Shown: positions 5,037 through 63,783 of the stretch, in pieces
Layout of the letters: each line of letters starts with the position of its first letter
Numbering within the stretch: position 1 is the stretch's first letter
IMG/VR virus record: IMGVR_UViG_3300002895_000002
Span: 64,001 to 128,000 of that record
Source of the DNA: a virus
Taxonomy: Duplodnaviria > Caudoviricetes
Direction: 5' to 3' (one strand)
Length of the DNA: 64,000 bases
The notes under the pieces: model-generated
What the model was told of the DNA's origin: nothing
Database searches by the model: none
The model's input: the letters and a program-made list of their open reading frames with translations, nothing else
Translations under genes and position numbers: made by a program

Positions 5037-5566
5037 TGAAGAGAGACTATTCGGACGGCAACACAAACAAAGCAGTTAAATTCTTTGTAGGTAATGAGAT
5101 TGAAAAGACCTCAGCCTATGGAAAGAAGACTCTGTTTGTCGTAATCGACGAAGGCCTTACCAAAGAAGAAGTTGTTGATCAGCTTGTCAACGATGTATCC
5201 ATTGAGCATGTGTATCTCGGAGCAAACAAGTCCAACGAAAACAAATTCAGAGAGGCGTTGCTTGAAAGGATAATCAGGTCAATTCTTATCCTTGATCACC
5301 GACCCATCCACGTCACCATCGATGTCCCATACGAGAAATATGCGAATGTTACTCGGTGGGATCCGGAACTGATGCTTCATAATCGGGTTCATGTGAACTT
5401 GTCTGTTCCTGTTGATAACATCAAGAGGATTAAAAATCTCACAATTAAGATAGACGATATCGGATTCAATATCACCAACGATGGGGTCTGGTGTTTCGAG
5501 CTTGACAAACATCCCGAGTGCAAAACTACATGGGACGAATACAAAGATGACAAGATCATCGAATAG
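5036..5566 (+). CDS. hypothetical protein of the deazaguanine cluster
   Basis: TAATG translational coupling to the glycosyltransferase; 176 aa ORF. Confidence 0.75.
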   Translation: MKRDYSDGNTNKAVKFFVGNEIEKTSAYGKKTLFVVIDEGLTKEEVVDQLVNDVSIEHVYLGANKSNENKFREALLERIIRSILILDHRPIHVTIDVPYEKYANVTRWDPELMLHNRVHVNLSVPVDNIKRIKNLTIKIDDIGFNITNDGVWCFELDKHPECKTTWDEYKDDKIIE

Positions 5567-5576
5567 AGGAATCAAT

Positions 5577-6116
5577 ATGATACGATCTGGACTTATCATC
5601 TTCGCACTCATCATCATGAGCATTCTCGGTGTTCATGCCTCTGCGTATGGCGTCGAGTTACTCGTGGAGAACATCAAGGTTTCTGACGGTGACACGTTCA
5701 AAGGGATGTACTACCAACTCCCAATGACTGTCCGTCTAAAGGGCATCGACACTTTCGAGAGTCGACTCGGAGCACGCCTAAACACCCAGATGAACCGGTT
5801 TGGCTTCACTGACCAGTATGAGGCTAAGGCGGTCGGTGTGGCTGCTCGTGAACGACTGAAGCAGATCATGGCCAGCACCCGAGCATGCGTGGTGATTGAT
5901 GAGAATGACCCTACCGACAGCTACGGTCGGTTTGTCGGAAAGGCTCGTCCTGGCACGTGCGGCATTCAGTCGGTCTATGCCATGGACACACTCGTCCGGG
6001 AAGGACTGGCATACGTGGACTACCGCGGCACCACTGATGTGTACTATGCTGATTTGAAGTTGATCGAGGCTCAAGCCAAGGCAGCCAAGCTGGGCATCTG
6101 GAAATACACCAAGTAA
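5577..6116 (+). CDS. thermonuclease (SNase-like) with N-terminal signal/membrane segment
   Basis: VSDGDTF, VRLKGIDTFE, DSYGRFVG, LVREGLA and AKAAKLGIW motifs; hydrophobic N-terminus. Confidence 0.9.
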   Translation: MIRSGLIIFALIIMSILGVHASAYGVELLVENIKVSDGDTFKGMYYQLPMTVRLKGIDTFESRLGARLNTQMNRFGFTDQYEAKAVGVAARERLKQIMASTRACVVIDENDPTDSYGRFVGKARPGTCGIQSVYAMDTLVREGLAYVDYRGTTDVYYADLKLIEAQAKAAKLGIWKYTK

Positions 6117-6860: not shown

Positions 6861-6902
6861 ATAAATAAAGGTGCTTGGGACATAAACCCAAGCACCTTTA
6901 TT
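6861..6902 (+). promoter_or_regulatory. late promoter motif overlapping a 16-bp hairpin
   Basis: ATAAATA 6861-6867; IR AATAAAGGTGCTTGGG(6864-6879)/CCCAAGCACCTTTATT(6887-6902). Confidence 0.6.
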
Positions 6903-25895: not shown

Positions 25896-26258
25896 ATGAA
25901 GTCATTCAAGTCATTCATTGCTGAAGGAAAGATCCCTTCTGAGGTTGCTGCCAGGAACGAGCAGATCGACATTGAGGCCGTTGTGCGCGATGCCGTCAAG
26001 GAGTTTCATGGTATGGATGATGCAGCCATCAAGGCCATCACTGACTATATGCGTCCGAAGAAAGTGTTCAGCCTTGGCAAGATGATCGACGATCTTCCTT
26101 ACGGTGCAGGTGCAATGAAGGCTGCCATCGAAGCGGTCAAGAAGGCTGCTTCCACTGCCGGGTTCGGTAAGACGGGTGGTGGGTCTAAACCTCAGACCCA
26201 GGCTCAGAGAATAGACACGTACCTGAAGCAGAAGCACATCGGACCAATCAAGAGATAA
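25896..26258 (+). CDS. candidate head-internal protein with CTS-like N-terminus
   Basis: MKSFKSFIAE versus T4 IPII/IPIII capsid-targeting sequence MKTYQEFIAE. Confidence 0.7.
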   Translation: MKSFKSFIAEGKIPSEVAARNEQIDIEAVVRDAVKEFHGMDDAAIKAITDYMRPKKVFSLGKMIDDLPYGAGAMKAAIEAVKKAASTAGFGKTGGGSKPQTQAQRIDTYLKQKHIGPIKR

Positions 26259-26665: not shown

Positions 26666-27247
26666 ATGAAGAAATTTACTGACATGATCCGGGAAGCTGC
26701 TGAGACCAAAGCGGGATCCCAGGCACTGACCGACTTTGTTGGTCTGCTCAACGATTTCATCGAGCAGGACGTTGAAGAAGGCTGCTGTGAGTCTGCTGAA
26801 GATCATCCCCTCAACGCTCTCATCTATATTGCCAACACCCTGCCGGAAGACTGCCTCGGAAACATCACCCACGGTCTGATGGACTTCTACGGATATGACA
26901 CCGACGAGACTGCTGGTGAGGACGACGAAGATGACGTGATTGAAGAGTCCATCGATCCGGAAGAGTTTTATCTCATCACGGAAGGGTCCGTTGCTTCTGA
27001 TATGATCGCTCGTGCACGCCACGCTGTTGAGAAGAGCAAGGAAGCTCACGGCAAGAAGGGCATCCAGGCTCTCATCGCTCACGGCTACAGTGCAGAAGGT
27101 GCTCGTGCACTCCTGAAGCAGGCCAAGAAGAACCTCAAGAAGGGTCGCAAGAAGGCTCTCATGACGAGGAAGAAGCACCGCAAGATCATCGCAAAGCTCC
27201 GTGATAAAATAAGCAAGATCCGGTCTAAGATGGTCGGCAAAGACTAA
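26666..27247 (+). CDS. candidate head-internal protein, acidic N-half and very basic C-half
   Basis: MKKFTDMIRE N-terminus, internal I-x-E sites; TATAAATA at 26603. Confidence 0.7.
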   Translation: MKKFTDMIREAAETKAGSQALTDFVGLLNDFIEQDVEEGCCESAEDHPLNALIYIANTLPEDCLGNITHGLMDFYGYDTDETAGEDDEDDVIEESIDPEEFYLITEGSVASDMIARARHAVEKSKEAHGKKGIQALIAHGYSAEGARALLKQAKKNLKKGRKKALMTRKKHRKIIAKLRDKISKIRSKMVGKD

Positions 27248-27272
27248 CCGAAGGTCAAGACAACGGTTGACG

Positions 27273-27301
27273 AAGGGGAGCAAGAGATTGCTCCCCTTTT
27301 T
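27273..27301 (+). terminator. intrinsic terminator
   Basis: AAGGGGAGCAA-GAGA-TTGCTCCCCTT followed by T-run. Confidence 0.8.
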
Positions 27302-27330
27302 CTATGAAAAGAACATCAATCCAAATAAAT

Positions 27331-27359
27331 TTGACAGATAGTCAGATCTGTGTTATCCT
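27331..27359 (+). promoter_or_regulatory. sigma70-type promoter
   Basis: TTGACA-17 nt-TATCCT with TGn extended -10. Confidence 0.65.
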
Positions 27360-27433: not shown

Positions 27434-28090
27434 ATGATTGCTATTTCGGCAAGTATCGAAAAAATTGAAGCAAACCCAGAATTTGATTTTCAGTGGTCTC
27501 TTTTCGAGTGCACTGAACATTACATCCAACGGCTCTGGGACAATAACATCCCTGACAACGTGGCAGTTATTCACCTCCCACCAAAGAGCACTGAGGCTCA
27601 GATCGAGAGGTTGATTGGATGGGCAGCAATCAATAATGATAGGCCGGTTGTTGTCCACCCAAACCATACGGTGATGCGGGTCCTCGGTAAACATGAGAGA
27701 CAGGGTCTCACTCACATCTGTCTAGAGAATTTTCCATACTCCAGCAAGAAACCACTCCGGACACCACTGAACATTATGGACTATGCTGTCAGGAACGGCT
27801 TCGGGATCTGTTACGATTATGCTCACGTGGATCCGGATAATGAGCCAGCCTTTCGCTCACTAGAATTCCTCAGATCATATCTCCCGTTCGTTAGAGTGAT
27901 TCATTTCTCAGGGAACCGACACGATAAGCTCACTGAAGATGACTGGAGGGTGTGGAAGAACCTCATTCTCAATTACCCTGGAAGCTTGAGTGGTGTTGAA
28001 TGGTTCTGTCTTGAGCATAAACATGAAGCAGACAAAACAAATGACGGGAACAGGTTGGCAAAGGTGTTTAGTGAATTGTCTAAACAATAA
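27434..28090 (+). CDS. xylose-isomerase/AP-endonuclease-2-like TIM-barrel protein
   Basis: VVVHP, CLENFP, ICYDYAH, IHFSG and CLEH metal-ligand spacing; RBS AAGGAG. Confidence 0.6.
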   Translation: MIAISASIEKIEANPEFDFQWSLFECTEHYIQRLWDNNIPDNVAVIHLPPKSTEAQIERLIGWAAINNDRPVVVHPNHTVMRVLGKHERQGLTHICLENFPYSSKKPLRTPLNIMDYAVRNGFGICYDYAHVDPDNEPAFRSLEFLRSYLPFVRVIHFSGNRHDKLTEDDWRVWKNLILNYPGSLSGVEWFCLEHKHEADKTNDGNRLAKVFSELSKQ

Positions 28091-28098
28091 ATAATGAC

Positions 28099-29019
28099 AT
28101 GGTAAAGTCATTCAAAAAATATCTTGCGGAAGAAGAATCGGTATCTGCTACTAAAAGGCAGAATATGCAACATCTCACCCAAATGAAGCCCCGGGAATTT
28201 ATAGATCTCATGCGGCAGTTTCGGGATGAGCTCAACGGGATTATTTCTTCAGAGAAGGTTGATGTCTCAGAGAAGGTTGATGGCTTCGGTATCCGTTTTG
28301 GGGTTGATGATGGTGGTAAGTTCTTCATTGAATCATCCCGGTCCGGACCACAGTTCCACCACGGAGCATTCTCAGCCTACGCAAAAGCAAAGTTTGGCGT
28401 CGCTGATAACATCTCAGCAGGGTATGATGATATTTTCAAGAAGCTTGGAGAGTATAAGCAACTTCAGGATCTTTTGAAGAAGAATGGCCCAGTCAAGGTC
28501 ATTGGTGAGTGTCTTTACAATCCGAACGCTACTCTGACGGATCATGGGCTGAAATTCATTGCCACAACATACAACCCGAAGCTGCTCGGGAAGTGGGCGA
28601 CCTTCGTTCTCTTCCATACTGATCCGGATAAGGATCACCTCATAGATCAGATCAAGGCATTATCCACTCATGAGATCAAGTTCGCAACACCAGAAGTTGA
28701 TTATAATGATGTGGATATTACCTATCACATCAAAGACTTCTTCCAATTCGTTGATCAATATCCTAATATCAAAGAGATTCTCGCTTCCAGAAAAGCAGCG
28801 GATCGAGACCTCAAGAAAATGATCATTGACACATTCCAACGCTTCCAGAAGGATGTGACTGACAAGATAGCTTCGGGGATTGAGAAAGGGCAGTTTGGTC
28901 CGGAGGTTGAGGGAGCTGTCTTTGGGGTCAATGATACCAAGTTCAAGGTAACCACTCAGAGCTTCAAGAAGAACAAAGAACTGTTCAACACAGAATTCAA
29001 GGCCAAGAAGGGATTATAG
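28099..29019 (+). CDS. ATP-dependent ligase-like nucleotidyltransferase with CTS-like N-terminus
   Basis: SEKVDG (motif I KxDG), VIGECL (III), EGAVF (IV), KFKV (V); MVKSFKKYLAE; ATAAATA at 28087. Confidence 0.65.
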   Translation: MVKSFKKYLAEEESVSATKRQNMQHLTQMKPREFIDLMRQFRDELNGIISSEKVDVSEKVDGFGIRFGVDDGGKFFIESSRSGPQFHHGAFSAYAKAKFGVADNISAGYDDIFKKLGEYKQLQDLLKKNGPVKVIGECLYNPNATLTDHGLKFIATTYNPKLLGKWATFVLFHTDPDKDHLIDQIKALSTHEIKFATPEVDYNDVDITYHIKDFFQFVDQYPNIKEILASRKAADRDLKKMIIDTFQRFQKDVTDKIASGIEKGQFGPEVEGAVFGVNDTKFKVTTQSFKKNKELFNTEFKAKKGL

Positions 29020-30147
29020 ATGGGCGGTAATGCTTCGGTATTCAAGGATGGTCAACTCGTTGCTCAGGCTGAGAAGATAGACCTCAGCAAAGTAAGCAGA
29101 GGGTCCATAATTCCTGAGGTCAAAAAGACCCTTCATGCTATCGACTCTGCTTTCGCAAAGGAGTATGGTGTCCATCTCTGGCCCAATCATTCCATCATTG
29201 ACAACGGGTCGATCTTTGCTGGGTCGTCACAGTTCTTCATGGACCAGAGTATTAGTCACGATGAGTTTACACAACACAAACCGACCGTGGGTGACATTGA
29301 TGTCCAGATACCTCATGCGTACAAAGATCACCTGGACAAAATTCTCAAGCCAGGAAAACATTTTGGGTTGATGAAATATCACGGTCGGGCTGATACTTCT
29401 CTGTCTCAGCTCAACTGCGTGTTTGAACTCAAAGCTGGAATACACACCATCAACATCCAGATCGACTTCGAACCCGTTGATTGGCACGAGGAAGGCCCGA
29501 CTGGTTGGTCGCAGTTTGCTCATTCAGCAGATTGGGACGACATCAAGAGCGGTGTCAAGGGAGTCTTTCACAAATATCTGGTTGGTGCGGTTGACTTTGC
29601 TTACCAAAAACCAATCACTGTCCTTACAAGAAAAACCCTGAAGCCGAAGAAGGTTGATGCCCACGATTATGCCTTCAGTGTAGAGAAGGGCCTCCGTCAA
29701 AAATATGTCCTGGCCAAAGATGAGCACAGCAAGCCGATCATGGTTGATGGTGTCCAGGCCTTCTTCGAGATAGACCCCAAAGAGGCTGACTATATCACCG
29801 ACGTGGCTAGCATCTTCGTGGTTCTCTTTCGTATCGTTCCTGATCACGATGATCTGAAAAAGTTTGCGAGCTTCACTGGTGTTGTTGACCTGATTGATCG
29901 GGAGTTCAGTGGTTCCCAGCAGGCTTTGATCGTTGACGAGTTCCTGAAGCGGTGCTGGGGCAAGGGGGCTCAAGCTTTAGAAAGGGACGCACCAGAAATA
30001 GACGCTAAAGCTAAATGGGCAGCCGTCAACTATTTGGCCGATAAGTTACAAATGCCAAGCATTATAAAGAAAGCAGAATTATTAGTCGGCGAGTATTATA
30101 AGTCATATAAGATGAGTAAAGACAGGAGGGAGTATGCTAAAAGTTGA
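29020..30147 (+). CDS. Pol-beta-superfamily nucleotidyltransferase
   Basis: IFAGSS, GDIDV (DxD) and IQIDF catalytic motifs. Confidence 0.7.
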   Translation: MGGNASVFKDGQLVAQAEKIDLSKVSRGSIIPEVKKTLHAIDSAFAKEYGVHLWPNHSIIDNGSIFAGSSQFFMDQSISHDEFTQHKPTVGDIDVQIPHAYKDHLDKILKPGKHFGLMKYHGRADTSLSQLNCVFELKAGIHTINIQIDFEPVDWHEEGPTGWSQFAHSADWDDIKSGVKGVFHKYLVGAVDFAYQKPITVLTRKTLKPKKVDAHDYAFSVEKGLRQKYVLAKDEHSKPIMVDGVQAFFEIDPKEADYITDVASIFVVLFRIVPDHDDLKKFASFTGVVDLIDREFSGSQQALIVDEFLKRCWGKGAQALERDAPEIDAKAKWAAVNYLADKLQMPSIIKKAELLVGEYYKSYKMSKDRREYAKS

Positions 30148-30673
30148 CGAAGTACCAACAACTCCAGGACATGATAAAGTGACAGTGCTTATCGGTCGCT
30201 TTCAGCCTGTCACTTTCGGCGGCCATGGGAAGATGTACAATGAGGCCAAGAAGCTCGGTCATCCAGTAGTCATCTTCGTCGTCCGTGGAGAGAAGTCTGA
30301 CCCCAAAAAGAGTCCGTTCCCACTGGATCTAACGATAGAGATGGTGAGGAGTACATTTCCGGAGGCGACTGTATTACATGTTGGTTCCGCCTTTATAGGA
30401 GATTTCGTAAAGATTCTGCGGGATCAAAACATGGAACCAACCACTATCTTTTGTGGAACGGATCGGGCTAAAAGCTACAGAAAACAGATTGAATCATACA
30501 GTGATGTATGGAATCTAAAACTGGATTTACATGAAGTTGAACGAAATTCAGAAGATGTAAGTGCTACCTCAGTTCGGGATGCAATCAAAAATAACGACCG
30601 GATTCTTTTCCAAAACATGACAGCACCTCAGTGTCATCACTATTTCGACAAGCTGTTGTCCTTTCTCAAATAA
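30134..30673 (+). CDS. HxGH-type (cytidylyl/adenylyltransferase-like) nucleotidyltransferase
   Basis: GRFQPVTFGGH, PFP, GTDR and SATSVR motifs. Confidence 0.8.
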   Translation: MLKVDEVPTTPGHDKVTVLIGRFQPVTFGGHGKMYNEAKKLGHPVVIFVVRGEKSDPKKSPFPLDLTIEMVRSTFPEATVLHVGSAFIGDFVKILRDQNMEPTTIFCGTDRAKSYRKQIESYSDVWNLKLDLHEVERNSEDVSATSVRDAIKNNDRILFQNMTAPQCHHYFDKLLSFLK

Positions 30674-39157: not shown

Positions 39158-39922
39158 ATGGCCCTTCCGGTCCGGATCAAGAAAAAGTCAGAGCTGGTTG
39201 ATTACATTCTCCGCAAGCTGGGTTCCCCTGCTGTCAACGTAGAATTAACCAACGAGCACCTCGACGACGCAATTGAGGATACGCTCGAGGAATTCCTTCC
39301 TCGAGCTTATTCCGGCACACTCGAACGGTATGTTCAACTCCAGCTCATAAAGGATCAGCAAGATTACAGACTTCCTGATTCTGTTTTTGCTGTTCTCGGT
39401 GTGTTCAACAACAACATCGGTGACTATACTGTCTCCTCCACTGATATGTTCTCTGCCAACCAGTACATCGCCGCAGACATCTTTGGCGGGAACCTAAAGA
39501 ACGTTGACCTGCTTACCTATACAATGACCCAGCAGTTTATTGAAACGATGGGTTTGATCTTTGGTAAGCGGATCACGTTTGACTTTAACTCCAACACCAG
39601 AATCCTTCACCTTCATGAGCCGCCGAAGAGCAACATATTCACAGTAATGCACTTCTACATGTTCCTTGAGCGTGACGAAGATCCATTAACTCAGGACGAA
39701 CTCACGAACATCTACGATAACAAGTGGGTCAAAAGGATGGCGGTTGAGATGGCTCGGTATCAATGGGGTGTGAACCTCATGAAGTACAATGGCACAGTCC
39801 TTCCGAACGGGATGAATCTCAATGCTGGTGGCATCCTGGATATGGCAGAGAAGAATAAAGAGAAACTGATGGAAGAACTCCATAACGAATGGTCTTTACC
39901 TACCGACTTCTACATCGGGTGA
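39158..39922 (+). CDS. gp13: neck protein gp13
   Basis: ELVDYILRKLGSPAVNVEL, WVK.MA..QWG.NL.KY....LP.G..LN and LP.DFYIG motifs. Confidence 0.9.
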   Translation: MALPVRIKKKSELVDYILRKLGSPAVNVELTNEHLDDAIEDTLEEFLPRAYSGTLERYVQLQLIKDQQDYRLPDSVFAVLGVFNNNIGDYTVSSTDMFSANQYIAADIFGGNLKNVDLLTYTMTQQFIETMGLIFGKRITFDFNSNTRILHLHEPPKSNIFTVMHFYMFLERDEDPLTQDELTNIYDNKWVKRMAVEMARYQWGVNLMKYNGTVLPNGMNLNAGGILDMAEKNKEKLMEELHNEWSLPTDFYIG

Positions 39923-39985
39923 ATGTAGGTTTCCGGTTGATTTTTTACCTTTCTTGATAAATAGTATTACAAGAAAGGAAATATC

Positions 39986-41101
39986 ATGCGAGACTTTATT
40001 CTCAGCACTTTTATCACCAAACGAGGAACTTGTGATAGTTCAAAAATAAATCTTCTCTCAAATTATCATGATGACCTAGTTGAACTTGTTCCTGGGTGTG
40101 ATGGTGATGATAAAGAACGATTGTTTTGGTTATCGAGAGGGATAACAGAAGCTCCGGTTTGCAAAACTTGTGGTGGAAAAACAAAGTGGAAAGGGCTCTT
40201 TACTGTTGGAAAGAAGAGCTCTTATCCACTTTTCTGTTCTCCTGCTTGTAGAGCAAAAGATCCAGATGTTACCGAAAAACTCAAGGACTCTCAGTCAAAT
40301 CTCTATCAAGATGAAATGTTAGCAGTTTCTAATAAAGATGAATTGATAGAAATAATCAAACGTCGTTATTATAATGGCAGCAAAACAAATGGCAACTTCC
40401 TTCGTGCTCTCACTCCAAATATAAAAAGTCTACTCAATACTCTTACTCCAAAACTCAAATCTAACGACTACAAAGAAAAGATCTATTGGGTGATGAACGG
40501 ATTTGAAGACTACCCAAATTGGTGTTCGTGTGGCAACCCAATCACTCAGTTTAGAAAAGAATATAAGTGGAAGTTCTGTTCTAACAAATGCAAAGCAAAT
40601 GATCCTGATTTCCAAAAACAAAGAATCGAAACAACAACCTCACGATATGGGACTTCAAATAACAATGCAAAAACCAAACAAACAAACATAAAGAAGTATG
40701 GTGTTGAAAACGTATCACAAATCCCAGCGGTAGCTGATAAGATACTCAAAAATGGACACAGAAAGAAAGTATACACATTTCCTTCTGGAAGAAAAGTATT
40801 CGTTCAAGGATACGAGCCCCAAGCAATCGATGAATTGTTGAAAACATATAATGAAGATGATATTGTTCTTGATCGAAAACAAATACCAACATTTTGGTGG
40901 AACGACAAAACAGGAAAGAAGCACAGATATTTCCCTGATATATTCATCCCAAAAGACAATCTGGTAGTTGAAGTAAAGAGTAAGTGGACCTATGACTCTG
41001 CAAAAGATGTAAATGAGCGAAAGTTCGAACGTGTTCGGGAATCTACCTACAACTTTCGTTTGATGATACTTGATAAATACCAATGGAGGATTCTACCATG
41101 A
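39986..41101 (+). CDS. putative homing endonuclease (Zn-ribbon repeats plus C-terminal PD-(D/E)XK domain)
   Basis: CKTCG/CSPAC/CSCG/CSNKC, KKYGVENVSQ, VQGYE, YFPDIFIP..VVEVKS; AT-rich. Confidence 0.75.
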   Translation: MRDFILSTFITKRGTCDSSKINLLSNYHDDLVELVPGCDGDDKERLFWLSRGITEAPVCKTCGGKTKWKGLFTVGKKSSYPLFCSPACRAKDPDVTEKLKDSQSNLYQDEMLAVSNKDELIEIIKRRYYNGSKTNGNFLRALTPNIKSLLNTLTPKLKSNDYKEKIYWVMNGFEDYPNWCSCGNPITQFRKEYKWKFCSNKCKANDPDFQKQRIETTTSRYGTSNNNAKTKQTNIKKYGVENVSQIPAVADKILKNGHRKKVYTFPSGRKVFVQGYEPQAIDELLKTYNEDDIVLDRKQIPTFWWNDKTGKKHRYFPDIFIPKDNLVVEVKSKWTYDSAKDVNERKFERVRESTYNFRLMILDKYQWRILP

Positions 41102-47555: not shown

Positions 47556-49904
47556 ATGGCATTTTCGCTCAGCCCTTCAGTTGATGTGAGAGAGTTCGAT
47601 CTGTCCTTGACGATTCCGAACCTCCCTTCCGCTAAGACCGGCATGGTCCTGCCGGCCGACAAGGGTCCTTGCCTCGCCATCACTGCAATCACCAGTGAAG
47701 CCGACCTTGTCAACAAGTTCGGCAAGCCGACCAAGGACAATTACAAAGAGTGGTTCAACGCATGGAACTTCCTTCAGTATGCATCGAGCCTCTACGTTGC
47801 TCGCCCGCTGCCGCAGGTTGGTGGTGTTCCTGTTGAGAACGCAGCTCTGAAGTTCAACGCTCCAGGCGGGGTTTTTGATTCCGTCAACAATGAGAGCCTC
47901 GGCGATTTCTACAACGAGGAGCTGGCTTTTGGACAGATTGAGAACCAGCATACCATGGTCGCTCTTGACGACCTGATCTTCGTCAATCGTGCTGTTACGT
48001 CAACACAAGACGCTGCTGTTGCTACTTGTTCCGACCCAGCATACTGGAACAGCCCAATCGCTAATGATGTTGCCGCTAAAGGCAAGATTGTTTTCACTGC
48101 CGGCGTTGGTGATTGTGTTGTTGATGCAACCCTGTTGGGTGAAGGTACTCCGAGCAACACCAGCCCGATCGCCACTCGCCCTGTTTATCCGGCTGGCTCT
48201 ACCAAGATCGGAGTGGAAGACGCTTCATTCTTTGCTGTAGGTGACACCTTCATTGTTGGCAACAAGAACATCGTTGTCAAAGATGTTGATGTAGTGAACA
48301 ACATCCTGACAATCTCTCCGGGTCTGCCTGTTGCTGTCGCTCAACTCAAGAAGCTCTCTATCTTCTTTGACTTTACTGCCGGACCGATCCCGGTTGGTGC
48401 AACCACCATTCCGTGTCTTTCAACATCCGGTCTGGTAAACGGAGATAAGGTTGTTGTGTATGATGACAACACCGACCAGAAGATGGAACTGACCGTTGCT
48501 GGATTGACTCCAACTTCGTTCAGTTGTGCTGCTACTACGTTCACCATTGAAGAAGATACTGCCGGATACGTTGTTGGGTCTGACTCATACCTTCGTTCAT
48601 ACGATGCTCTGTATGATTCCGCTCTGGTCAAGACTGTTCAAGCTGGTGGTTCGACTGTCAGCACCTACATCATCGGAACTGGTTCGGTTGTAACGGAAGA
48701 ACTTGTTACCTTCAACGAACTGTTCGAGTTTGAGCCGGACTGGTCCAATGACGAGTTTGTTGTTGTTGTTCTTCAGAAGTCCAATAACAAGTTCGGTCTT
48801 GCTGAGACCTTCACTGGTTCCTACAATGAGACCGCACGTGACTTCAGTGGCCGCAACATGTTCATGGAGTCCGTGATCAACAGCCAGTCCAAGCTCGTGT
48901 ACTGTCTGGTCAAAGAGAACGGCAACAAGGTTGATACTGCTCCTCAGCCGCTGCAGAAGTTTGCTTCTTCCGCTCTTACTGTTGGCGATCCAGTCGGCAC
49001 CAACGACATCATCTTCGCAGAGGACCTCTTCAGAGATCCGGAAGGCTTCGATATCAACATCCTGATTGCCAGCAAAGGCAACCTTAACGGAATGTCCGAG
49101 ATTGCCGAAACCAGGAAAGACTGTGTTGCTATCGTATGTCCGTATCAAGAGACGGACTACATTGGCAAGTCTGCAACTGACGCCTGTGCCAAACTGATTG
49201 AAGAGTTTGGTGTCAAGTCCACAATGACTGGCTCCAGGGACTTCAGCAGATTCGGTACTTACTCCGCAGTATACGGCAACATGAAATACCAGTATGACAA
49301 GTTCAACGACGTCAACCGCTGGGTAGGTGTTGCTGGTGATATCGCTGGTCTGTATGCTGCGATGGATGCAGACAGGGATCCGTGGTGGGCTCCGGCAGGT
49401 CTCGAGCGTGGTAAGATCAAAAACGCTATCAAGCTCGTCATCAACCCGAACAAGCAAAACAGAGACGACCTGTATGTCAACAGCATCAACCCGATCCTGG
49501 GCATCCCGGGTGAAGGCAACGCTGTTGTATGGGGTCAGAAGACTGCAACTGCCAAGCCGAGTGCATTTGATCGCGTCAACGTTCGTCGACTCCTAATAAC
49601 GATCGAGAAGGCTGTTGCAACTGCATCCCGCTACGGTCTCTTCGAGTTCAACGATGCATTTACCCGGTCCAGGCTGTTTGCTCTCATCGACCCGTATCTC
49701 CGCACCGTTCAGGCTCGCCGGGGTGTTTATGACTTCCTGGTTGTCTGTGATGAAAGCAACAACCCGGCAACTGTGATTGACGCTAACGCGTTGGTTATCG
49801 ACGTTTACCTGAAGCCGACCAAGGTAGCAGAATTCATCCAGATAAATATGAAAGTAACAAGGACGGATGCTAACTTCCAAGAAATTGTCGGTCAAGCCCC
49901 ATAA
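47556..49904 (+). CDS. gp18: tail sheath protein
   Basis: SPSVDVREFDL, FGKPT, W.APAGLERG, WGQKT, FDRVNVRRL and EFND.FTR. Confidence 0.97.
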   Translation: MAFSLSPSVDVREFDLSLTIPNLPSAKTGMVLPADKGPCLAITAITSEADLVNKFGKPTKDNYKEWFNAWNFLQYASSLYVARPLPQVGGVPVENAALKFNAPGGVFDSVNNESLGDFYNEELAFGQIENQHTMVALDDLIFVNRAVTSTQDAAVATCSDPAYWNSPIANDVAAKGKIVFTAGVGDCVVDATLLGEGTPSNTSPIATRPVYPAGSTKIGVEDASFFAVGDTFIVGNKNIVVKDVDVVNNILTISPGLPVAVAQLKKLSIFFDFTAGPIPVGATTIPCLSTSGLVNGDKVVVYDDNTDQKMELTVAGLTPTSFSCAATTFTIEEDTAGYVVGSDSYLRSYDALYDSALVKTVQAGGSTVSTYIIGTGSVVTEELVTFNELFEFEPDWSNDEFVVVVLQKSNNKFGLAETFTGSYNETARDFSGRNMFMESVINSQSKLVYCLVKENGNKVDTAPQPLQKFASSALTVGDPVGTNDIIFAEDLFRDPEGFDINILIASKGNLNGMSEIAETRKDCVAIVCPYQETDYIGKSATDACAKLIEEFGVKSTMTGSRDFSRFGTYSAVYGNMKYQYDKFNDVNRWVGVAGDIAGLYAAMDADRDPWWAPAGLERGKIKNAIKLVINPNKQNRDDLYVNSINPILGIPGEGNAVVWGQKTATAKPSAFDRVNVRRLLITIEKAVATASRYGLFEFNDAFTRSRLFALIDPYLRTVQARRGVYDFLVVCDESNNPATVIDANALVIDVYLKPTKVAEFIQINMKVTRTDANFQEIVGQAP

Positions 49905-63099: not shown

Positions 63100-63783
63100 A
63101 TGAAGCCCAGTTTGTTGATTGAAGAGGTGGACTATCAGTCCATCGACAATCAAATCATTGTTGAGGCAGAAGAAGGATCAGCCCCGGTAAAGAAATATTA
63201 CATCAACGGGCCTTACCTTGAAGCTGAGACGAAAAACCACAATGGTCGGATCTATCCTCAGGCCGTTCTTGAGCGTGAGGTCAAGAAGCTCGTCGAAGGT
63301 AAGATCAAACAGAACCGGCTCATGGGTGAGCTGGAACATCCCACCACTACCACCATCAATCTGGATCGCGTTTCCCACCTGATCAAAGAACTGAAGATGG
63401 AGAAAAACATCGGCGTCGGGAAGAGCCTTGTTCTCGAGACCCCGATGGGTAAGATCGCACAGAGCCTGATCGACGCTGGTGTGAAGCTCGGTGTATCTAC
63501 TCGTGGTGTTGGCTCGCTGCGTGAGAGCATCGTCCAGAACGATTTCAGTCTCATTACTGTCGACATCGTTGCTGATCCTTCTGCTCCGAGTGCTTTCGTT
63601 GACGGCATCCTTGAGTCCAAGAAGGAATGGGTCATGGAGAATGGCATCCTGGTCGAGAAAGACTTGGAAACACTGGAAGAAAATCTTGATAAGTACACGG
63701 TAGAAGAGAAAGCAACCGCGGCTGTCAAGGTGTTTGAAGACTTTATGTCCATGATTCGCGGCGAGTACATCGCAAAAAAGTAA
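63100..63783 (+). CDS. gp21: prohead protease
   Basis: I.G....AE..N.NGRIYP, GELEHP, LDRVSH, GVSTRG.GSL and DIVADPSAP.AFV.GI.E. Confidence 0.96.
   Translation: MKPSLLIEEVDYQSIDNQIIVEAEEGSAPVKKYYINGPYLEAETKNHNGRIYPQAVLEREVKKLVEGKIKQNRLMGELEHPTTTTINLDRVSHLIKELKMEKNIGVGKSLVLETPMGKIAQSLIDAGVKLGVSTRGVGSLRESIVQNDFSLITVDIVADPSAPSAFVDGILESKKEWVMENGILVEKDLETLEENLDKYTVEEKATAAVKVFEDFMSMIRGEYIAKK

Follow-up and report, generated by a model that had tools for sequence, protein, structure and literature searches.

Four consecutive genes on the plus strand of a T4-like phage, designated here open reading frames (ORF) 0 to 3 and spanning 27434-30673, appear to form one module: a kit that would heal, fill in and seal breaks in polynucleotides and that in most related phages would travel as head cargo. 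We place the probability of this reading at slightly better than one half (about 0.55). The genes lie in a 64,000-nucleotide window, positions 64001-128000 of a 213,116-bp record (IMGVR_UViG_3300002895_000002) judged complete; coordinates below are those of the window unless stated otherwise. An earlier note had described ORF1, ORF2 and ORF3 as abutting or overlapping genes for a ligase-like, a Pol-beta-like and an HxGH-type nucleotidyltransferase behind an ATAAATA at 28087, the first protein starting MVKSFKKYLAE. All of this was found as claimed, with exact coordinates: the ATG of ORF2 directly abuts the TAG of ORF1, and ORF3 overlaps ORF2 by 14 nt and is preceded by a strong AGGAGG. The set of three enzymes is thus present, but a fourth gene, ORF0, and the fusion of polymerase X (PolX)-like and ligase domains that is usual in relatives had been overlooked.

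Evidence that the genes belong together comes from other phages. A search of IMG/VR with a 14-sequence ORF2 alignment revealed at least 222 stretches encoding ORF2 relatives; the best 80 loci were examined, and in 73 of them an ORF1-family ligase lies no more than 6 kb from the ORF2 relative; 49 of these 73 encode the two in one PolX-ligase reading frame of 677-2135 amino acids (aa). The HxGH family is found in 21 of the 80, and the commonest order is PolX, ligase, HxGH. Individual relatives show how freely the parts are rearranged. The closest long relative (L001) has ORF0, ORF1, two small genes, ORF2 and ORF3; a second (L002) has ORF0, ORF1, ORF2, three genes and ORF3; a T4-like relative with UvsW and UvsY (L007) has an RNA_ligase gene in the ORF1 position, followed by ORF2 and ORF3; and in Stenotrophomonas phage Moby (L010) gp048, gp050 and gp051 correspond to ORF2, ORF1 and ORF3, with gp049 between the first two. 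Elsewhere the order is ORF2, ORF1, Metallophos (L022), or the pair is inserted with an HNH gene between gp18 and gp19, as gp18, ORF2, ORF1, HNH, gp19 (L023). Each pairwise fusion involving the HxGH domain is also represented. One protein joins PF09414 (residues 23-231) to HxGH (416-585) (P0133), at least 13 cluster representatives carry KxDG and EGhh ahead of an HxGH domain, and Atlas clusters of 51-71 members join an ORF1-like fold with PF01467; HxGH-PolX fusions are seen in P0062 and its relatives (E 1e-17 and 1e-97) and in L006, where ORF1 lies 1.2 kb downstream of an HxGH-ORF2 fusion. The linkage of the three families is not due to chance, and they are parts of one system; the window carries a split, order-permuted form of what is usually a fused PolX-ligase polyprotein. 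The synteny that the earlier note had proposed as a check therefore extends, as neighbouring or fused genes, to both related and distant phages. At the nucleotide level, blastn of the module region against 50,697 phage records gave no match. It was also observed that phrog_12709 (552 positions) covers both Moby gp049 (8-295) and gp050 (290-552); the 314-aa gp049 domain, for which there is no Pfam match, is apparently fused to the ligase-like domain in related phages.

ORF1 has the features of a nucleotidyltransferase of the RNA ligase type. Among 15 homologues K59xD61G62 (motif I) and E137 (motif III) are invariant, and E271, G272, V274 and K283 are at least 90% conserved; motifs I, III, IV (EGxx) and V occur in ligase order, with motif V being K281xK283 in this copy. 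The AlphaFold model (predicted local distance difference test score, pLDDT, 91.2) aligns by VIA-align with the Naegleria RNA ligase NgrRnl (residues 135-339) at Z 10.7 over 188 residues with a root-mean-square deviation (rmsd) of 3.7, with T4 Rnl2, T4 Rnl1 and REL1 at Z 9.1-9.3, and with DNA ligases at about 7.8; 38 chains reach a Z of at least 8, and those listed are all ligases. The protein is a bare nucleotidyltransferase domain, lacking the OB domain, the Rnl2-type C domain and the extra module of Rnl5; between its motifs IIIa and IV, some 50 residues (approximately 208-258) form a helical insert. Searches of Pfam (E up to 1) and NCBIfam with ORF1 gave no match, and no library gave a convincing one. 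Single-sequence and profile searches of PDB sequences with ORF1, ORF2 and ORF0 likewise gave nothing significant, the sole match of the ORF1 profile being a non-significant one (E 0.49) to motif IV of 'RNA ligase1'. The ORF1 homologue of L007 (34% identity), which aligns with the ORF1 family profile at an hhalign E of 4e-41, scores 36.5 bits with PF09414 (cut-off 27). On its motifs and its model, ORF1 is assigned to the ATP-dependent RNA ligase superfamily, and adenylylation of Lys59 followed by sealing is predicted. A 484-aa protein of Vibrio phage phiKT1024 has, in its N-terminal half, the candidate ligase motifs HKTDG, FIEF, EEGVI and LKW in this order as judged by eye, the local alignment to the hidden Markov model being non-significant.

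In ORF2, residues G68, S69, D92xD94 and D149, which make up the hG[GS], DxD and third-Asp signature of a Pol X palm, are invariant among 47 homologues, and the model (pLDDT 95.6) points to the Pol X palm and thumb. Foldseek matches it to Pol lambda with an E of 2e-4, a probability of 1.0 and a template modelling (TM) score of 0.33-0.4, and Pol lambda and Pol beta also head a search of the afdb_swissprot models. By VIA, residues 136-335 of Pol beta align over 176 residues (Z 7.6, rmsd 3.7), and Pol X of African swine fever virus (ASFV) aligns with 164 of its 176 residues (Z 6.8); the top row is a cGAS-like receptor, at Z 8.0 but with an rmsd of 8.1. The aligned part is palm and thumb only, the 8-kDa and HhH subdomains of Pol X not being seen in ORF2. 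The fold likeness is modest, and ORF2 is here called PolX-like on the basis of its model and is not counted as a member of family X. The motifs of all three enzymes, invariant or nearly so among homologues, do map onto the folds claimed for them, and the models of ORF1 and ORF2 are nearest to RNA ligases and Pol X, respectively. ORF2 belongs to the unannotated family phrog_19290 (E 7e-41). Its genomic context, with an RNA-ligase-type neighbour in 73 of 80 loci, is like that of RlaP, the RNA-ligase-associated Pol-beta enzyme; membership in RlaP itself was ruled out, as PF10127 matches none of the 47 family members. Separately, Atlas clusters of Pfam DUF6267 (PF19782) match the ORF1 model (a 586-aa cluster, TM 0.69 by query), and 328-aa DUF6267 fragments match the ORF2 model (TM 0.49/0.55); what Pfam lists as DUF6267 may be a portion of the fused PolX-ligase protein, and no mention of DUF6267 was found in the searchable literature.

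ORF3 is the only one of ORF1-ORF3 with a Pfam match, PF01467, which it reaches with 32 bits (cut-off 21). The family consensus, GRFQPxTxGH ... GxDR ... ISATKVR, is varied in this copy to TFGGH, with one Gly more than the consensus, and SATSVR. The best specific matches are to NMNAT models (NF003786, E 3e-5; PRK01153, 8.7e-5; phrog_3462, 7.5e-5), yet the scores of 22-23 bits are far below the equivalog cut-offs of 127-449, and from these scores ORF3 is best regarded as a member of the HxGH superfamily only, without the status of an NMNAT equivalog. A complex prediction for ORF1 with ORF3 scored 0.00; having been made without controls, it weighs neither way.

ORF0 is probably a metal phosphoesterase of the AP_endonuc_2/Endo IV type and thus a candidate end-healing enzyme. 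Atlas language-model features place it with sugar-phosphate isomerase/PF01261 clusters (0.94, 182 shared), PF01261 is matched by one of six homologues (E 0.002), and there is a weak match to the CbiR phosphodiesterase (E 0.03). Invariant in the family are H47, H75, E98, D128, H131, H157, H163, E194 and H195, and the D128-x-x-H131 spacing resembles that of Endo IV metal ligands. In L001 and L002 the ligase gene comes directly after an ORF0 homologue, and in L022 a non-homologous phosphoesterase, Metallophos, stands in the place of ORF0.

The N-terminus of ORF1 resembles a capsid-targeting peptide of T4. Such peptides occupy the N-terminal 10-19 residues, include aromatic positions and end in an (L/I)xE site for cleavage; in the T4 internal protein IPIII the first 10 residues are enough for capsid targeting, residues 4 and 7 being of importance in targeting and residues 8 and 10 in cleavage by gp21 (PMC9026906). 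IPIII starts MKTYQEFIAE, and the ORF1 leader has the same spacing of its aromatic pair and LxE end; residues 1-13 of ORF1 are disordered in the model (pLDDT below 50). The leader is found in some ORF1 homologues and is absent from others. In this genome the core leader motif occurs seven times in 66,011 residues of plus-strand ORFs, and N-terminally five times against 0.16 expected, an enrichment of approximately 30-fold. A gp21-type protease is encoded as well (PF03420, E 6e-28, genome 127142-127621, i.e., window 63142-63621), and the capsid-targeting-like leader of the earlier note is therefore real.

In the ORF2 family the same signature recurs. Among 89 representatives, 47 start M-GGN and 36 have a leader before the invariant GGN; E directly precedes GGN in 34 of these 36, and P3 is L or I in 30. 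A hydrophobic residue-xE-GGN is present in 70 of 80 IMG/VR relatives, and the inter-domain linker of the PolX-ligase fusions contains [ILVMF]xE in 48 of 49. The mature GGN N-terminus would thus be reached by removal of Met or by cutting of a propeptide, as predicted for a cleavable targeting peptide. The two relatives most similar to ORF2, at 74% and 61% identity, both bear leaders. In Campylobacter phage vB_CcoM-IBB_35, the product of gene 1-56 was detected in purified virions by electrospray ionization tandem mass spectrometry with 17% coverage (PMC3322345 Table S2); this gene (39251-40417) is an ORF2 homologue starting MKLSELMFILE-GGN. A search for the virion proteome of phage Moby found none in the searchable literature.

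Several other genes carry similar N-termini. The 120-aa protein starting MKSFKSFIAE, 2 kb upstream of ORF1, is one of the five N-terminal occurrences of the motif; its start is nearly that of T4 IPIII, and it has no match in Pfam or PHROG. A 193-aa protein at 26666-27247, which starts MKKFTDMIREAAE, is acidic in its central part and strongly basic at its C-terminus, and fits the leader pattern only loosely; it is possibly a further cargo protein. Outside the window, the N-terminal motif was also observed at genome positions C1:7823, C1:19402 and C1:36265 (MLRFGQFITE, MAKPKGFKKYVTE and MIRFREYLNE, respectively); the ORFs at C1:7823 and C1:36265 are 123 and 174 aa, and all three are candidate head cargo. 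In L001 the 183- and 101-aa genes inserted in the module (5151-6004) start MKTFKQFLAE and MIKSFKRFLAE, so that the module there sits in a cluster of leader-tagged genes.

Signals for expression of the module are less uniform. The hairpin upstream of ORF0 (fold of 27262-27312: -22.4 kcal/mol, z -4.3) has a 12-bp G+C-rich stem followed by UUUUU. A sigma-70-like candidate promoter, a consensus match only, agrees with the consensus at 10 of 12 positions and is intergenic and 3' of this hairpin; ORF0, whose ATG is preceded by a good Shine-Dalgarno sequence (aaaggaga), may be reachable from it. ATAAATA occurs at 42 sites in the window against 6.3 expected (6.6-fold), mostly intergenic on the plus strand, a pattern that would suit late promoters of the T4 type. 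Only 5 nt separate the end of the copy at 28087 from the ATG of ORF1, and for this reason this copy is a possible module promoter only; it could give a leaderless, or nearly leaderless, late mRNA, or else be incidental. The late synthesis that the earlier note had proposed is thus plausible through ATAAATA, but is made less certain by the position of the site and by the sigma-70-like candidate before ORF0. Sites 3-9 nt before start codons, often over the previous stop codon, were seen at 6861, 9192, 15569, 28087, 32624 and 41073; if these are late promoters, leaderless or near-leaderless mRNAs would be expected from them. Table 1 collects the features of the window. Outside the module, ARAGORN called a tRNA-Asn (GTT) at 47803-47872, within the span of a 782-aa plus-strand ORF (47556-49904), so that one of the two calls may be mistaken.

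Table 1. Features of the module and of related genes and signals (window coordinates)
Feature	Position	Strand	Description
120-aa protein, starts MKSFKSFIAE	25896..26258	+	2 kb upstream; candidate internal head protein
Terminator-like hairpin and T-run	27269..27308	+	Closes upstream unit (gene 26666-27247)
Sigma-70-like promoter candidate (TTGACA, 17 nt, TG-TATCCT)	27331..27359	+	About 75 nt before ORF0
ORF0, 218 aa	27434..28090	+	Probable AP_endonuc_2/Endo IV/xylose-isomerase-type TIM-barrel metal phosphoesterase
ATAAATA, T4-type late-promoter core	28087..28093	+	Overlaps ORF0 stop codon; end 5 nt before ORF1 ATG
ORF1, 306 aa	28099..29019	+	Stand-alone RNA-ligase-type (covalent lysine) nucleotidyltransferase domain
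ORF1 leader MVKSFKKYLAE	28099..28131	+	T4 capsid-targeting-like, with LxE protease-type end
ORF2, 375 aa	29020..30147	+	Pol-beta superfamily; Pol X-like palm and thumb; extra C-terminal helical domain
ORF3, 179 aa	30134..30673	+	HxGH (HIGH) nucleotidyltransferase; nearest NadM/NadR-type NMNAT and citrate-lyase-ligase-like
gp21-type prohead protease (Peptidase_S77)	63100..63783	+	Expected cutter of (L/I)xE leaders

Together these findings suggest an order of events. ORF0 would clear a blocked 3' end or incise at a lesion, ORF2, through D92, D94 and D149, would add the missing nucleotide or nucleotides onto the 3'-OH, and ORF1 would form Lys59-AMP and then seal the nick between 3'-OH and 5'-phosphate. 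ORF3 would make or break an A(5')pp(5')N bond, and might in this way pre-adenylylate 5' ends, rescue aborted ligations through pyrophosphorolysis, or provide a cofactor of the dinucleotide kind. Such a bond is found in nicotinamide adenine dinucleotide (NAD) as well as in the 5'-adenylylated intermediate of ligases, and its presence in the latter would explain the recurrent HxGH-ligase fusion. Because most relatives carry a targeting propeptide or polyprotein (L/I)xE sites, the kit would in these phages enter the prohead, undergo trimming by the gp21-type protease and be injected along with the DNA.

The substrate for such a kit would most probably be one of two kinds. Broken RNA, such as tRNA, is given close to an even chance, since ORF1 is nearest RNA ligases and has no OB domain, and CCA-adding enzymes (L006 and phiKT1024) and kinases (an AAA_33/Zeta-type kinase near one distant ORF2 relative) are found near some relatives. 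There is precedent in RlaP, which adds 1-2 nucleotides to damaged RNA prior to ligation (PMC7824862; bioRxiv 10.64898/2025.12.29.696909). Incoming modified phage DNA, repaired by a route like base-excision repair or with ribonucleotide patches, is a somewhat weaker but serious candidate, favored by the PolX palm and thumb, the Endo IV-like ORF0, the HhH-GPD gene near a distant relative, the existence of separate Rnl1/Rnl2-type ligases, and the travel of the enzymes with DNA. The HhH-GPD gene, of the DNA glycosylase superfamily (L020:2603-3061, 152 aa, E 2e-12), overlaps the start of a gene for a 1288-aa protein with an ORF3-type HxGH domain, and a weak ORF1-like protein is encoded two genes upstream; it is the only direct hint of DNA base-excision repair. 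Some other substrate is unlikely. A bolder proposal, and a rather doubtful one, is that T4-like phages widely inject a protease-matured PolX-like/ligase/NMNAT-like machine that acts in the first seconds of an infection, before phage gene expression, and either repairs hypermodified incoming DNA that host glycosylases or nickases have attacked, as a virion-borne base-excision repair like that of ASFV, or reverses tRNA cleavage, the HxGH enzyme being a new polynucleotide 5'-adenylyltransferase or de-adenylase paired with the ligase.

A number of observations weigh against the reading of ORF0-ORF3 as a packaged repair kit. In this phage neither ORF2, which starts MGGN, nor ORF3 has a leader, so targeting would reach ORF1 at most, unless the three were carried together in one complex. 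The earlier suggestion of a co-packaged and injected set is well supported for the family, by leaders and by the IBB_35 virion proteome; for this phage, where the leader is on ORF1 only, packaging is a prediction. The role given to ORF3 is drawn from chemical reasoning, and enzymatic activity in the ORF1 and ORF2 families is a prediction. The likeness of ORF2 to Pol X is modest (TM 0.3-0.4, Z 6.8-7.6), and common arrangements score likewise; no Pfam family, Pol X and RlaP included, matches any of the 47 members. The sequence of ORF0 itself had no PF01261 match in the Pfam search, and relatives found with the ORF0 profile are in none of the 80 best IMG/VR loci, from which ORF0 is an optional member of the module. 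Finally, with ORF1 the genome has three ligase-type genes in all; the other two, a canonical PF09414 (Rnl2-type) ligase and a T4 Rnl1-type ligase (C1:68-517 and C1:204823-205416), cloud the niche of the module.

These same ligases also count against the alternative that stands up best, although we regard it as unlikely, in which the genes are a usual RlaP-like operon for RNA repair in the cytoplasm, whose products, made after infection, mend tRNA cut by host anticodon nucleases; the ORF1 leader is then a relic or coincidence, and nothing is packaged. The nearness of ORF1 to RNA ligases (Z 10.7 versus 7.8 for DNA ligases), the PF09414 match of the L007 homologue, the RlaP precedent, the leaderless ORF2 and ORF3, the sigma-70-like promoter before ORF0, and the CCA-adding enzymes and kinase near relatives all speak for it. 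Against it, the leader motif is enriched at N-termini, that of ORF1 is close to T4 IPIII, the nearest ORF2 relatives bear leaders, and a member of the family was found in virions.

Less probable still is that the enzymes make, rebuild or destroy a small nucleotide, whether in NAD-like salvage against NAD-depleting defence or in manipulation of immune signals. NMNAT models are the best specific matches of ORF3, the cGAS-like receptor is the top VIA row for ORF2, and all three enzymes use nucleoside triphosphates. ORF3 is, however, far below every NMNAT equivalog cut-off, ORF2 fits Pol X with a much better rmsd than it does the receptor, ORF1 keeps all ligase motifs and has polynucleotide ligases as relatives, and phosphoesterase partners (the TIM barrel, or Metallophos in L022) suit end healing. 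Salvage of NAD by NAMPT with an NMNAT-type enzyme is disfavored, as neither NAMPT nor NAPRTase was found in the complete genome. Of the functions offered in the earlier note, polynucleotide repair is thus the one that fits the phosphoesterase, the PolX-like fold and the RlaP precedent, whereas the NAMPT-dependent form of its NAD proposal does not fare well. Its remaining suggestion, nucleotidylation of host proteins, which injected host-takeover enzymes would carry out much as T4 Alt ADP-ribosylates RNA polymerase, found no support and is very improbable: the head-cargo signature does recall Alt and the internal proteins, and some Pol-beta-fold enzymes modify proteins or small molecules (ANT(2'') and LnuA are among the rows for ORF2), but in fold the enzymes come closest to polymerases and ligases and not to protein modifiers, and neither the fusion of three nucleotidyltransferases nor their pairing with phosphoesterases has a known counterpart in protein AMPylators.

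Comparison with known systems places the packaged repair kit between several that have been described separately. With NadM/NadR-type NMNATs ORF3 shares GRFQP..(T/H)xGH, ISxTxxR and PF01467; it differs from these, and from the phage NadV and NatV salvage pair, in falling below equivalog cut-offs and having no NAMPT partner, and from known NMNATs, which are not so fused, in the recurrent fusion of its family to ligase or PolX-like domains. A fused RNA ligase and NMNAT in a phage was not found in the searchable literature, and the fusion points to undescribed enzymology of 5'-adenylylated ends. ORF1 has the fold and motifs I, III, IV and V of Rnl5 (Naegleria NgrRnl, Deinococcus DraRnl), T4 Rnl2 and REL1, without the N-terminal OB-like module of Rnl5 or the C domain of Rnl2, and with its helical insert and leader in addition. 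As in systems of RlaP, of which T4 NrdC.11 is a member (PF10127), an enzyme of the Pol-beta superfamily is coupled genetically to an ATP-dependent RNA-ligase-type enzyme. In contrast to those systems, the fold of ORF2 is nearest the Pol X palm and thumb, and PF10127 is matched neither in its family nor anywhere in the complete genome; the ligase, in many cases joined to ORF2 in one protein, is of a separate family not recognized by Pfam; the third member is an HxGH enzyme; and most members have capsid-targeting leaders. The head signals are those of T4 IPI-III and Alt, i.e., an N-terminal targeting peptide, an (L/I)xE site and a gp21-type protease, together with an IP-like gene at 25896, whereas the cargo would be nucleic acid enzymes (a polyprotein in relatives) in place of small basic proteins or an ADP-ribosyltransferase.

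In summary, ligases that repair together with a Pol-beta-type enzyme, and capsid-targeted cargo of T4, are each known already; no account of their combination was found in the searchable literature, nor of the two families that lack Pfam models, of PolX-ligase polyproteins or of an HxGH enzyme as third member. The module gives two sizeable families without Pfam entries (phrog_19290 and the ORF1 ligase family) a testable function and route of delivery, and would extend the partnership of ligase and Pol-beta-type enzyme from cytoplasmic RNA repair to cargo delivered by the virion. Being compact and leader-tagged, the enzymes might also serve as tools, as small ligases and polymerases and for delivery of proteins by T4-like heads. 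If the substrate is tRNA, the phage would with this kit inject its response to anticodon nucleases. If it is incoming DNA, the parallel would be ASFV, which carries Pol X, AP endonuclease and ligase in its virion. ORF2 aligns with ASFV Pol X on the palm and C-terminal subdomain, having neither the 8-kDa nor the fingers part, and in the module, too, a PolX-like enzyme is accompanied by a ligase and by a phosphoesterase resembling the Endo IV superfamily; against this, Z is only 6.8 with no match at the sequence level, and the ligase is of the RNA ligase type without an OB domain. Acting on DNA, ORF0-ORF3 would be the phage counterpart of the ASFV virion repair set and likely a counter to glycosylase and nicking defences.

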